Assembly (NCBI RefSeq): GCF_058153355.1 | Contig: NZ_CM177019.1 | Length of the DNA stretch: 64,000 nt | Direction: 5' to 3' (one strand) | Shown here: positions 6,488 through 10,863 of the stretch, piece by piece | How the letters are laid out: every line of letters starts with the position of its first letter | Position numbering within the stretch: the first letter of the stretch is position 1 | Program-made: the position numbers and the translations under genes | Notes under the pieces: model-generated | The model's database searches: none | What the model was told of the DNA's origin: nothing | Seen by the model: only the letters and a program-made list of their open reading frames with translations

Positions 6488-7480
6488 TCACCCCCTGAAT
6501 CCTGCCGGGATCTGGCTGTAGTCCACGTTGTCGTAACTGGCTTTGAAGTACGGGTCTTCACGTTTTTCTGTGTGCGTGCTGACGGACGGCGATAAGCGCA
6601 GGGAAAGCTCATCCCATTTTTCCCGCAACTTCGACGGGCTGAGCACGTTACGGCACCAGAACGGATCGCGGCTGACGCGGCTGTACATCTCGCAGATTTG
6701 TTTGTGAGTACGACCATCCTGCACACACATCAGGCGAATTTCGTTTGCCCATGCTGTCCAGTTCGGTTCTTTGGGACGAACCACCTCGCCGTCACATTCG
6801 GCGGCCTGCTCGTACAGGGCGATGATTTTTTTCCAGAGCCACTGTGCGCAGGTCAAATCATCCTGCGTTCCCCACTGGCGCTTTTTAGGGCTGAATACAA
6901 CCGCATCAGGATGGCGAGTTAAAAACTCCTGTTCAGCCGTTTGCGTGTCCGGTTGCGAAGCGTCCGGACGAGAAGAGGTTTTATTCTCTGTAGTAATCTC
7001 TGTTGTATTCTCTGTAAGATCATTGGGCCATTTTGACCCGATGACAGCGTGTCGTTTTGAACCAATGGATCGTGTCATTTTGCGCCCATCCATCAGGTCA
7101 CTTTGACCCGATGGAGAAGTGCATTTTGACCTGATGGATTCGTTCACTTTGACCTCTTCTAAAAGCTCACTTTCATAGTTGATCGTGTAGAAGTTGGTCA
7201 TGTCACGCTTCGATTTATTGAGTTGCTCGCGACGCAAAACCCCAAGTGATTTCAAGCTTGCAAATGTGCGTTTCAGAGTGGACTCTGACCAGAACGGAAA
7301 CTGCTCCAGCCACTGTTCTGTCGTGTTATAAACCCAGCGAATTCCGCCATGCTCTGTGCCTGAATTCGTTTCATTCAGCCAGTAATGAAGCTGCTGCAAC
7401 ACAATTGCCTCATTCAGACCAATACGGCATGCAAGATCACGATTTATCACAATGGGCTGGGATGTCATTAACAGGCTCAT
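6488..7480 (-). CDS. Phage replication initiation protein (O-like, iteron-containing) with DnaT-like C-terminal tail
   Basis: 330-aa ORF; C-terminus DYSQIPAGFRG resembles the C-terminus of host DnaT in this same window ([13 protein letters not shown]); internal iterons. Confidence 0.6.
   Translation of the reverse strand: MSLLMTSQPIVINRDLACRIGLNEAIVLQQLHYWLNETNSGTEHGGIRWVYNTTEQWLEQFPFWSESTLKRTFASLKSLGVLRREQLNKSKRDMTNFYTINYESELLEEVKVNESIRSKCTSPSGQSDLMDGRKMTRSIGSKRHAVIGSKWPNDLTENTTEITTENKTSSRPDASQPDTQTAEQEFLTRHPDAVVFSPKKRQWGTQDDLTCAQWLWKKIIALYEQAAECDGEVVRPKEPNWTAWANEIRLMCVQDGRTHKQICEMYSRVSRDPFWCRNVLSPSKLREKWDELSLRLSPSVSTHTEKREDPYFKASYDNVDYSQIPAGFRG
7028..7156. repeat. Iteron array (5-6 direct repeats of ~CAYTTTGACCYGATGG), candidate prophage replication origin
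   Basis: Direct repeats visible at ~7028, 7052, 7098, 7120, 7144 inside the replication gene, as for lambda ori inside O. Confidence 0.6.
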
Positions 7481-7489
7481 GACCGACCT

Positions 7490-7828
7490 CTATTTCCCTG
7501 AATTTACGACGAAACTGTTCGAGCGGACTGAAGCATTCATGTTCATAGCCTTCACGGAGGTAGATAACCCGTTGTGTTTCCGGCTCCCAACGAATGACTC
7601 TGACGGGCACTCCGTAGTGATCTTTGAACCAGCGGTTAACTTGTCGCAAAGGACTGTCTCCTTCTGCCGGTTGAAATCACCCACAGCCCACTCTGCAAAG
7701 CTGTGGGTTACAATTTCCCTGTCACCTGGTACATTCACTGCATAGCAATACTCCACCTTCGCTTTTCCACCCGGTACAGGAAGCGCAATCAGTTGCGAGC
7801 GACGGTAGTGTGTTGTTAAACTGTTCAT
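7490..7828 (-). CDS. Hypothetical phage protein (112 aa), coupled between the YdaT-like gene and the replication gene
   Basis: Start overlaps upstream stop (ATGA); its stop TAG is followed by AGGTCGGTC then the downstream ATG; an alternative overlapping frame (7437..7649) also looks protein-like. Confidence 0.35.
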
Positions 7829-8409
7829 GCGTTAGTTTCTCCACAGACACAAAACGCCACGACGCCCGGAGCTGCACACTCGCGGGCGTCACTCTTTTCT
7901 GGAGCGCAAAAGATTTTGTAGACCAGTGCTGCATGCTCCTGGAGCTTCGAAATTGACAGATACAACTCATCATTAATTACTGTCTGCTCGTGTGGCTCCA
8001 CTACCCCATCTTCGATTGCCGAACGAATCTGCTTTGAGTAACTCCCGATCTGTTCGATGACTTCCAGCAGACGCTGGTTTATATCGGCGTTCTCTACTTC
8101 CTCAATTTCAGGAAGCGATACAAACACCCCACCAGCAGACTGTGCGACAGCATCCGCAATGTAGTGAGTGCCAGCCGCGCGCTGTAAAATCATTGCCCAT
8201 CCCAGCGGGAAAATCTGATCGCCATCTGCACGAAGGCGGTTGAATAAAGCGTTCTCTGTTACATCCAGCCACTCAGCAGCTTCAGCGTAACCTCCCGGCA
8301 ACGCCGCGATAGTTTTTCTGACAGCTTTCACGTACCACTCAGGCTGTTTTTCTACTTTCCAGTGATGCTTACCCACGGCTATCTCCTTAAAACTGTGGTT
8401 ACTTTCCAT
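7825..8409 (-). CDS. Phage regulatory protein, YdaT/CII-like (194 aa)
   Basis: Position immediately downstream of the cro-like gene, as ydaS-ydaT in Rac; family from recollection. Confidence 0.4.
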
Positions 8410-8647
8410 CAGATAAGTCTTTAATCTTTTGAAAAATATCTGGACGTAATTTTTCTTTTGATACGCCAGTGGTCATTTCAATGAATATCGAGAGCTTTGC
8501 AGGGGGACGCTTTTCTCTGTTCAACCAGTTCCAGACATGTTGTTGCTTTACTAAACGACCACTGCTGGCTGTGAGCTTCCGAGCCAATTCTGATTGACCA
8601 CCAGCCAGAGCGATTGCCTCTGATAAGGCTAATTGCTCAGGTGTCAT
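8399..8647 (-). CDS. Cro-like HTH regulator (YdaS-like, 82 aa)
   Basis: Small ORF divergent from the cI-like repressor; AGGAGA RBS upstream. Confidence 0.55.
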   Translation of the reverse strand: MTPEQLALSEAIALAGGQSELARKLTASSGRLVKQQHVWNWLNREKRPPAKLSIFIEMTTGVSKEKLRPDIFQKIKDLSDGK

Positions 8648-8784: not shown

Positions 8785-9471
8785 GTGAAAACATTGGCAG
8801 AAAGACTAAAAAGCGAAAGAGAAAAAGCAGGAATGAGTCAGGCGCAACTAGCTGAAAAAATTGGACTTTCACAACAATCCGTAGCGAAAATCGAGAATGG
8901 AGAAACTCAACAGCCTCGGAAAATTAAAGAGATTGCTAAAGTGTTAGGGGTTTCTCAAAAGTGGTTGCAATTGGGCATTGAGGATAACGCGTCTTTCCCA
9001 AACCTTGTTGTAAAGGAGGCTGAAAGTACAACATTAGATCCTGACATTTTTGCAAACATTCCTGTCCTAGATGTCGAATTATCAGCGGGTAATGGATGTT
9101 TGGCTGAAATAGTTGAATCAACTGTAGACTGGTTCCCGCTAAGAAGGATTGATTTAAGGAAAGCTGGTGTATGTGTCTCCAATGCAAAGATCGTAAAAAT
9201 TTGGGGTAATAGTTTACTACCTGTACTTAACAATGGAGATTTTGTTGCTGTTGATGTTTCCCAAACAGTTCCTATTCGTGATGGGGATCTTTATGCTATA
9301 CGTGATGGCGTATTACTTAGAGTTAAAATATTGATCAATTTACCTGACGGTGGTCTGATTCTAAGAAGTTTCAATAAAGATGAGTATCCAGATGAAATAC
9401 TCACCTTCGAAGATAGGCGTTCCAGAATTCACGTTATAGGTAGAGTATTCTGGTCATCGCGCACTTGGTAA
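8785..9471 (+). CDS. CI-like phage repressor (HTH-XRE plus S24 LexA-like peptidase domain), GTG start
   Basis: 228-aa ORF; N-terminal HTH (QAQLAEKIGLSQQSVAKIENG) and C-terminal domain of the size expected for an S24 peptidase. Confidence 0.75.
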   Translation: MKTLAERLKSEREKAGMSQAQLAEKIGLSQQSVAKIENGETQQPRKIKEIAKVLGVSQKWLQLGIEDNASFPNLVVKEAESTTLDPDIFANIPVLDVELSAGNGCLAEIVESTVDWFPLRRIDLRKAGVCVSNAKIVKIWGNSLLPVLNNGDFVAVDVSQTVPIRDGDLYAIRDGVLLRVKILINLPDGGLILRSFNKDEYPDEILTFEDRRSRIHVIGRVFWSSRTW

Positions 9472-9654
9472 TGCATCAAAAACATTCCTTCAGAAATTTA
9501 GTTACCATTATTACCCGCCTTTTCAATCTTCCTCCCGTGATTTGAGAGTTTCCAATCACGGAAGGAAAGTGTCCATTGTGTAATTAAAAGCGCATCGTCC
9601 ATACAACCTCCTTTTTTGATAACCCTAGCCCCCATTTAACATCCGTCAAAACCA

Positions 9655-9700
9655 CATAAAGTTGTTGACAACAACCAAAACAACAACTAGATTACAACTT
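9655..9700 (+). promoter_or_regulatory. PL-like promoter with overlapping operator palindrome
   Basis: 17-bp palindrome GTTGTTGACAACAAC containing TTGACA, 17 nt spacer, TAGATT; same half-site motif as in the OR-like region. Confidence 0.5.
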
Positions 9701-9803
9701 AAAGATGTTGCAGTAACGAACAGGCAGGACGCCCACGAAGTAGCCGCCGGTGGCGTATGAATGACCGGATGATTCGTTAAATACTATGTGTAAGAGAGCG
9801 CAA

Positions 9804-10006
9804 ATGAACCGTTATTTCACATGCTCGTTTTGTGGCGCAAACGAGCTGCAGGCAAAAAAATCATCGCCAAAGGCGGAAAAGATGAAGTTGCTATCTGCTC
9901 TGAGTGCGTAGTCTTGTGTGTTGGGGCATTAATCAATATCAGCACAACTATTCAGTTCACACCAAATGAGAATGCGCCTTTAGATGCGCGGAAATCTGGA
10001 GGTTAA
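9804..10006 (+). CDS. Small ClpX zinc-binding-domain-like protein; full product needs a -1 shift at the A7 tract 9854-9860 (zero frame stops after 35 codons)
   Basis: Frame 0 gives MNRYFTCSFCGANELQAKK..., the -1 frame continues IIAKGGKDEVAICSECVVLC...; joined product resembles the ClpX N-terminal CSFCGK...YICDECVDLC motif. Confidence 0.4.
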
Positions 10007-10094
10007 AGAACAAAATGAAAGTCCAGATTTTAAACAATAACTGTGAAGTCGTTTGGGCGTAAAACATGACCGCGCGTAGACCAAGGGAGGAAAA

Positions 10095-10272
10095 AGTGGG
10101 AATAGTTAGAAATCAAGCAGATATATTGAAAATCAGCTCTGAATTGCTTGGAGTTTTGAAAAGTGAGCTCACCGCACATGGCATCGAGCCCACTGACGAA
10201 AATTTAAGTTGGGTTTTGTCGATTATTCAACAATCACTCAAGCCCAGCCTCAGCAAACTTTTTATCGAGTAG
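10095..10272 (+). CDS. Hypothetical small protein (58 aa from GTG with GGGAGG RBS; ORF track lists it from an ATG at 10066)
   Basis: ORF only; convergent with and overlapping a minus-strand small ORF. Confidence 0.2.
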
Positions 10273-10425
10273 TGCTTCGAACTTATCGTAAAGCTTGCTT
10301 ATGTCGTCTATCGGGTTTTCTGACGTACTGTAATTTTTATCTGATGTCATGGCAGCAGTCTGATATGCAGTGTGAGTCTTAACCGATAGTTGGAATAAAT
10401 AAAGAATTTTTTCTTCTTTGGTCAT
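10234..10425 (-). CDS. Hypothetical small protein (63 aa from internal ATG with AAGGA RBS)
   Basis: ORF with a good RBS (AAGAAGGAAATAGTT-ATG); no motif recognised. Confidence 0.25.
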   Translation of the reverse strand: MTKEEKILYLFQLSVKTHTAYQTAAMTSDKNYSTSENPIDDISKLYDKFEALLDKKFAEAGLE

Positions 10426-10863
10426 AACTATTTCCTTCTTGGCTATATGAAAACACCAAGATACCACCGAGCCTGAAGTGGTGAAAAGACAGGCACATAA
10501 CAGCTAAGTATTTTCAACCAGAGAGAATCCTTAGCGTTGTGGTGAATGCGGCTCAGCGCACGCGGGTTAAGGTTGAGGTTGACAGTCGACCTTCTGTGGA
10601 TACCCACCCGCCTGGTGTGCAACCTTCGCCAGGCACCGGGAGGCACCCGGCACCACAACTTTATGCTGTGTGTAGTCCTCGCGGTACCAGTTTGTACACT
10701 TGCTTCCGGCTGGTACCGCTCTTTTTACAAAACAGAGAAGGGCATCACCGGACGACGGGCTCATAACCCAATCCATCCGGGCGGCTGCCACCGCAGGTGT
10801 TCTTCTCTGTTTTGTGGAGAAACCAACCGACCTTGCAGGGTCGATATGATGAGGAGCAGCAAA

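Follow-up and report, generated by a model that had tools for sequence, protein, structure and literature searches.

In E. coli, ClpX's N-terminal zinc-binding domain (ZBD) is required for the degradation of lambda O, and a hydrophobic patch around its residues F16 and I46 binds lambda O, SspB and RssB (PMC7804408). The isolated ZBD binds the XB peptide of SspB with nanomolar affinity (PMC12373786). Domains of this kind are also common in stand-alone proteins: in a representative set of 1.8 billion proteins, those with one to four ClpX-ZBD-like repeats gave 154 matches at E <= 1e-3, mostly 60 to 250 aa long. One protein of the representative library (P0016, 2505 aa) matches the ClpX-ZBD-like query over 22 separate stretches, and many of the other matches have two to four tandem repeats within 100 to 300 aa. 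For the ClpX-ZBD-like proteins of phages, a literature search returned no characterised member and no experimental paper on the family. As regards shifts of reading frame, slippery heptamers without stimulators have been found to shift at 2 to 10 times a background of 0.055%, A_AA.A_AA.A being listed above 0.10% (PMC4066793). In bacteria, efficient slippage of transcription is documented at runs of 9, and a G7 run in herpesvirus TK has established the concept of a 'savior indel' (PMC5009743 for both).

The window, by which we mean the whole 64-kb stretch of DNA that was analysed, is an E. coli-type chromosome with a lambdoid prophage, whose immunity region includes the ORF under study, hereafter the zinc-finger ORF. 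This region encodes a CI-like repressor on the + strand (8785-9471) and, on the - strand, a Cro-like regulator (8399-8647), a CII-like regulator (7825-8409) and an O-like replication initiator (6488-7480). A PL-like sigma-70 promoter, TTGACA-17-TAGATT (9665-9693, + strand; 10/12 in a consensus scan), is located 3' of the repressor gene amid operator-like GTTGT/ACAAC repeats; at related loci, many different promoter/operator sequences occupy this position. The zinc-finger ORF is the first ORF after the promoter, and yfdP, yfdQ and yfdR are downstream genes. The gene family is found in enterobacterial prophages of the lambdoid type, relatives of SfII, SfV and CPS-53. In many E. coli prophages, the repressor gene is separated from the PL promoter and leader by a gene for a 'BRCT domain-containing protein' on the opposite strand (for example L007, 613-1503 (-); H49-H75), which resembles an inserted, moron-like cargo gene and is absent from the window.

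The zinc-finger ORF begins at an ATG at position 9804, with a weak Shine-Dalgarno (SD)-like AAGAGAG (9792-9798, + strand) located 5 nt upstream. Read in frame 0, it gives MNRYFTCSFCGANELQAKKSSPKAEKMKLLSALSA and stops after 35 codons at a TAG (9909-9911). It contains a run of seven A residues (A7, 9854-9860, + strand) in the phase A_AAA_AAA, with GCA at 9852, AAA at 9855 and AAA at 9858, followed by TCA in frame 0. The -1 frame reads ...KKIIAKGGKDEVAICSECVVLCVG... and ends at a stop at 10004-10006. If base 9860 is read twice, the two frames are joined into a 67-aa product with the pattern C7-x2-C10 ... C32-x2-C35; taken singly, the peptide of 35 aa from frame 0 and the ORF of 61 aa downstream have one CxxC pair apiece. 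All the elements on which the original prediction was built are thus present: a zero frame with CSFCG and a stop after 35 codons, a -1 continuation with ICSECVVLC, and at the join a heptamer A_AAA_AAA in the X_XXY_YYZ zero-frame phase. Runs of A7/T7 or longer are not rare in themselves, since 25 of them are found in the 64-kb window.

The resemblance to the ClpX ZBD, which was also part of the original prediction, proved to be well founded. The Pfam model zf-C4_ClpX (PF06689) matches the joined product with high significance (i-E 2e-10; residues 6-40, positions 2-34 of the 39 in the model), which settles the proposed profile search against the ClpX zinc-finger family in the affirmative, and phmmer matches it to the ClpX ZBD in the PDB (2.5e-4; chains 2ds5 and 1ovx). 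The four zinc-ligand cysteines, C7, C10, C32 and C35, are invariant in 30 aligned relatives, E. coli ClpX included. An AF2 model built from this 30-sequence alignment has block-mean pLDDT values of 81-95 over residues 1-40 and of 76 over residues 41-50. When the model was compared with the PDB by Foldseek, the confident matches were ClpX ZBD structures only (2ds5/2ds6/2ds7; TM(target) 0.79-0.84, rmsd 1.5-1.9 A, probability 1.00), and the next match, to a non-ClpX structure, had an E-value above 1. Models of full-length ClpX (NCBIfam NF003745 and TIGR00382) gave 25.8 and 22.7 bits, for cutoffs of 359 and 371, and it is only their first ~40 residues that match the joined product. PHROG 5259, a family of 'unknown function', matches over the full length (2e-31), and the PADLOC defence models returned no match. 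We conclude that the joined product is a genuine stand-alone ClpX-type C4 zinc-binding domain, with a resemblance far beyond chance, and that it belongs to PF06689 by profile, ligands and fold without being a ClpX.

How such a domain came to be divided between two frames is best seen by comparison with other copies of the gene. The joined product is identical to WP_001083098.1 of E. coli ECCHD184, an annotated RefSeq protein that is encoded contiguously, with a run of eight A residues (A8). Measured against such intact alleles, the gene in the window consists of a 5' part in frame 0 (9804-9860, + strand; MNRYFTCSFCGANELQAKK, with the first CxxC), which is the same as their first 19 codons, and of a 3' part in the -1 frame (9861-10006, + strand; IIAKGGKDEVAICSECVVLCVG..., with the second CxxC, the C-terminal helix and the stop). 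Alignment and allele census both identify the A7 tract as the A8 of the intact genes, where GCA AAA AAA ATC encodes A-K-K-I, minus one A; it is through this deletion that the premature TAG is met in frame 0. Near-identical prophages have A7 in the window and in UPEC_U013, A8 in K-15KW01 and Z1323PEC0011, and A9 in CX strains, and the A8 alleles of K-15KW01 and Z1323PEC0011 are annotated as an intact 204-nt CDS, 'ClpX C4-type zinc finger protein'. Over the 3.7 kb around the gene, the tract is the only coding indel between the window and its close A8 relatives, and the neighbouring genes are intact. A run at 9477-9481, just 3' of the repressor stop, is A5 in the window and A6 in three of the loci compared (L001, L002 and L004); it is non-coding and its length has no coding consequence.

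A census of alleles was carried out by exact-match queries. In 98 records from complete E. coli genomes, A8 was counted 64 times, A7 24 times and A9 five times, the five others having SNPs in the flanks; among 42 loci on IMG/VR viral contigs, there were 37 A8 and five A7, with no A9 and none of any other kind. A7 thus accounts for 12 to 24% of copies across both censuses, a figure inflated by clonal sampling. The more distant homologues are contiguous as well. In Salmonella phage 118970_sal3 (~77% nucleotide identity), the sequence is GCAAAAAAAATT, with GCA AAA AAA ATT in frame and a contiguous A8; 20 IMG/VR loci have GCG followed by ATA or ATG, then AAG ATC (AIKI or AMKI), in a single frame with no A run at all; and six loci have GCAAAAAAGCTC, with GCA AAA AAG CTC (A6), also in a single frame. 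Every one of the diverged subfamilies is single-frame, the run being A8, A6 or absent, and the A8 tract is missing from ~26 diverged loci. Because these relatives are single-frame and some have no run, the A run is no more than one spelling of Ala-Lys-Lys-Ile.

Other rearrangements of the gene were encountered along the way. In Salmonella phage 118970_sal3, the zinc-finger ORF is a 57-aa gene that overlaps the next ORF (ATGA; L006, 1587-1927), and in an alternative form, found on 1000 or more contigs of monophasic Typhimurium, the two ORFs are fused into one of 101 to 112 aa (P0012/P0013); the two forms differ at a junction near ACAAAAGAAG, a second frame change in the zinc-finger gene family. 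At two IMG/VR loci (L128 and L129, 3001-3120), the first 15 zinc-finger codons (MNNYHTCSFCGANEM) are fused straight to the downstream ORF (NNAASIEFWQ...) by an internal deletion, and the remaining domain is lost.

Taken together, these data make it very probable that the locus is a frameshift-inactivated A7 allele of an ordinary 67-codon prophage gene, and not a site of programmed frameshifting. The normal form of the gene is a continuous frame in which Ala-Lys-Lys-Ile is spelled GCA AAA AAA ATC, that is, A8. Slipped-strand loss of one A, spontaneous and heritable, would then have turned A8 into A7 at what is presumably the most mutable site of the gene; in a lysogen, where the gene would be repressed, there may be little selection on it. 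The deletion breaks the frame after codon 19 and brings in the premature stop, so that neither half has all four zinc ligands; in the A7 allele, the four cysteines are indeed divided between two frames. Ribosomal -1 slippage on A_AAA_AAA, without assistance, or slippage of RNA polymerase, might still yield a trace of full-length product, of the order of 0.1-0.5% at most. Such a trace is expected from A7, and nothing points to its selection. The gene itself is already known, its intact form, as opposed to the broken allele, being annotated in RefSeq. As a candidate for recoding, the locus is of no significance, since what it carries is an annotated gene in an allele short of one base. It does hold a caution, in that a slippery heptamer between two domain halves may be nothing more than a homopolymer that has been broken.

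The foremost alternative is that the deletion does not exist, the true genome being A8 with an intact gene and the missing A a homopolymer miscall of sequencing or assembly. Homopolymers are the classic site of long-read errors, and other genes nearby are likewise flagged as 'frameshifted' in the five clonal CX assemblies that show A9. The distribution of A7 argues against this. It is found in at least three flank backgrounds, each time beside A8 siblings, and in one case the two alleles are in two prophages of the same genome (L012 with A7, L013 with A8). The four A7 loci of one background group together in a separate sub-lineage with three haplotypes; the deletion was therefore passed on as this sub-lineage diverged. 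In the set of complete genomes, A7 is found at the same chromosomal coordinate throughout a clonal E. coli lineage whose many records were deposited separately and come from several sources (dog, human, cat and sewage). A7 therefore tracks haplotypes and is inherited within lineages, and it is also found in IMG/VR viral contigs, most of which have genome-type IMG identifiers. To this must be added, for the window itself, the intact neighbouring genes and the lack of any second coding indel over 3.7 kb. Recurrence and inheritance within lineages both point to a real one-base deletion, and A7 arose at least three times, as a genuine, recurrent and heritable deletion in a homopolymer prone to mutation. 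Given how common it is, a real A7 allele is the default expectation for the window, and we consider an error unlikely.

If the deletion is real, it could be asked whether the tract is kept for its mutability, A8 serving as a mutational ON/OFF switch of the first PL gene and A7 providing, through slippage, a low dose selected in the manner of a 'savior indel'. The tract is polymorphic in length (A7, A8 and A9), A7 has at least three independent origins, and a share of 12 to 24% of copies is high for a random lesion. Against this, the tract is not conserved across the zinc-finger family, A7 is stable through the diversification of its lineages with no sign of flickering, and no credible back-switching was seen; GCA-AAA-AAA-AT is moreover a common spelling of AKKI under E. 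coli codon usage. We did not take A9 as evidence of two-way switching, because it comes from the five clonal CX assemblies with flagged genes nearby and is not trusted. Compared with homopolymer contingency loci, a run of 8 A residues is short. A selected switch is, on these grounds, very unlikely. The same low probability is given to a more elaborate scheme, in which a trans-acting N-domain decoy would shield phage proteins such as the O-like initiator soon after induction, A8 would be a heritable switch of its dose, and A7 would deliver ~0.1-1% of the product, by slippage of ribosome or polymerase without assistance, as a selected 'savior indel' in lysogens.

Programmed recoding, in which the zinc finger would need a -1 ribosomal shift, or the insertion of an A by RNA polymerase, on A7, is the least tenable of the alternatives and can be practically dismissed. 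In its favour are the correct X_XXY_YYZ phase of the heptamer, the use of A_AAA_AAA by some IS elements and its shifting above background without stimulators. Against it, contiguity is seen in most alleles and in every diverged homologue, whole subfamilies have no run, frame 0 yields a fragment of 35 aa that has half a zinc site, and the efficiency expected is below 1%. Stimulators were sought on both sides of the tract. The 70 nt located 3' of it fold at -16.7 kcal/mol, compared to a mean of -16.6 for shuffled sequences (z -0.03), which gives no indication of a stimulatory structure, and on reading the sequence no GGAGG-like element was seen 10 to 14 nt upstream. The search for a homologue lineage in which the two-frame arrangement is conserved found none, and the shift site is not conserved. 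The original prediction held the -1 shift to be required, as a designed feature, and this is the part of it that does not survive, given the majority of contiguous A8 alleles, the single-frame subfamilies and the lack of a downstream stimulator. It had also proposed a comparison of homologues for a contiguous A8 or a conserved A7, and had stated that it would be refuted by uniformly contiguous A8 homologues; the comparison gave this outcome, with contiguous A8 in the majority.

With the locus taken as a broken allele, the role of the intact protein can be considered apart from that of the tract. ClpX F16 corresponds to F9 of the phage protein, which is invariant, and the position aligned with I46 is small or hydrophobic, namely A, V, I or T, among relatives (A42 here). 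The same prophage encodes an O-like initiator. The intact protein could behave like a detached ClpX N-domain, either by binding ZBD-dependent substrates or adaptors or by pairing with the ZBD of ClpX itself. Such a free domain, as the first product of PL, might compete for these partners and so alter ClpXP turnover early after induction. That the protein changes ClpXP turnover in this way is a tentative proposal, to which we give somewhat less than an even chance, its basis being homology only. The variability of the residue aligned with I46 and an insertion of three residues in the hairpin count against a decoy function. The intact family remains a modest lead, as a free-standing ClpX N-domain that is expressed first from PL in phages which also have an O-like initiator. 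If the proposal is correct, it would plausibly be a phage route to interfere with the docking of substrates or adaptors on ClpXP.

A more valuable by-product of the analysis is found between the PL-like promoter and the gene. The 5' end of the PL transcript contains a structured leader RNA of ~64 nt (9715-9778, + strand), with three helices, P1 (9715-9720/9773-9778), P2 (9723-9725/9731-9733) and P3 (9747-9751/9764-9768). It was delineated by covariation, RNAalifold and a covariance model. In 33 diverse sequences, 93.5% of cells were paired, compared to 69% on shuffling (0/500) and 23 to 44% with the partners slid, and 11 of the 14 pairs were changed on both sides. RNAalifold returned the same helices independently. 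The covariance model (R1) scored 91 bits at 9713-9782, the only credible match in the window, the next best being 13.4 bits (E 0.036). None of the coding sequences nearby is conserved as strongly as the leader block, and its junction CCACGAAGUAGC and loop GGCRUAYGAA are invariant, which is partly due to how the sequences were collected. A scan of positions 9300-10500 with Rfam 15 (E <= 1) gave no match, and a literature search for the sequence of the leader motif returned unrelated primer matches only.

The leader stands behind at least 125 different upstream contexts and at least 30 different pairs of promoter hexamers. In 62 of the 67 contexts with a strong promoter, 9 to 23 nt separate the end of the -10 hexamer from helix P1, and the leader begins within ~3 to 17 nt of the PL start site. 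It was found in 53 sequenced phages, from the genera Escherichia, Salmonella, Shigella, Klebsiella, Yersinia, Citrobacter, Pectobacterium, Pantoea and Aeromonas, as well as in Providencia phages of the T5 type, and is almost never annotated; in the temperate phages examined, it is located just 3' of a cI-type repressor gene, at the head of the early-left operon. The zinc-finger ORF follows it in 38 of the 125 promoter contexts only, and we therefore consider this ORF an optional cargo gene, a module separate from the leader. The position of the leader suggests a candidate put-like, polymerase-modifying or antiterminator RNA, or another 5'-leader function. What gives it its interest is that it is widespread at the heads of early-left operons, is not in Rfam and was not found in the literature searched.

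Some variants of the leader lie outside this arrangement. The Rac prophage of K-12 MG1655 has no more than a diverged or degenerate, partial copy in the racR/ydaG gap (L256, 7517-7553 (-); AAGUAGCC...GGCGUAUGAA, 11.9 bits), 3' of a TTGACA promoter. The small RNA KilS of K-12 Rac, upstream of kilR, was considered as a possible identity of the leader and rejected, being a different sequence at a different locus. T5-like Providencia phages (Demerecviridae) carry the leader too, in phage PR1 within the terminal repeat. The Providencia leader is behind an extended -10 promoter, TGTGATAAT; in Providencia phage PSTCR5 (L133), it spans 1205-1270, and ~10 nt after it, at 1279-1288, CGCTCTTTAA resembles boxA.

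Several known systems can be set beside this locus. Starting with the leader, it shares with the HK022 put RNA the features of a structured RNA of ~65-70 nt close to the PL start, in phages without an annotated N. It differs from put in having three helices instead of two long stems, and one copy per genome with none found 3' of PR; when the covariance model was used to look for another copy downstream of PR in the window, none was found. Identity with put was rejected, since there is no blastn similarity and the covariance model had no match on the PL/PR region of HK022 (putL, putR). As for the gene, it was said to sit where lambda has N, and it is indeed the first ORF after a PL-like promoter, beside a CI-type repressor gene. 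The likeness is positional only: this place in the operon is what it has in common with lambda N and HK022 Nun, without relationship of sequence or domain, and Pfam, PHROG and NCBIfam searches bearing on the N/Nun family return ClpX-ZBD-type or unknown families only.

The tract, for its part, has an in-phase slippery lysine heptamer in common with the bacterial -1 programmed frameshift sites of dnaX and of IS911/IS3 (A_AAA_AAG with an SD and/or a hairpin or pseudoknot). Unlike them, it has no stimulators and is not conserved, the contiguous form is the norm, and the zero-frame product is not useful. With the G-run 'savior indel' of herpesvirus TK and with homopolymer contingency loci, it shares a recurrent one-base indel in a coding homopolymer that slippage can partly bypass; it differs from these in being short and not maintained across the family, with no sign that an OFF or leaky state is selected.

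The nearest relatives of the gene are those annotated in RefSeq as 'ClpX C4-type zinc finger protein' in E. coli prophages (WP_001083098.1, WP_033545897.1; PHROG 5259), which have the same operon position; unlike these, the window has the A7 frameshifted allele, to which annotation pipelines give no gene call. Compared to E. coli ClpX, the protein is phage-encoded, 67 aa in all, devoid of the AAA+ module and provided with a disordered C-terminal tail. Its hairpin is three residues longer than that of the ClpX ZBD (KGGKDE against GP-S), and its residue aligned with I46 is variable. With the N-terminal ZBD of E. coli ClpX (PDB 1OVX, 2DS5-2DS8; PF06689), it nevertheless shares the four cysteines, spaced as CSFCG...ICxEC, the Phe that is conserved in the hydrophobic patch, and a zinc ribbon made of a beta-hairpin with a helix after it, the predicted fold superposing at 1.5-1.9 A.
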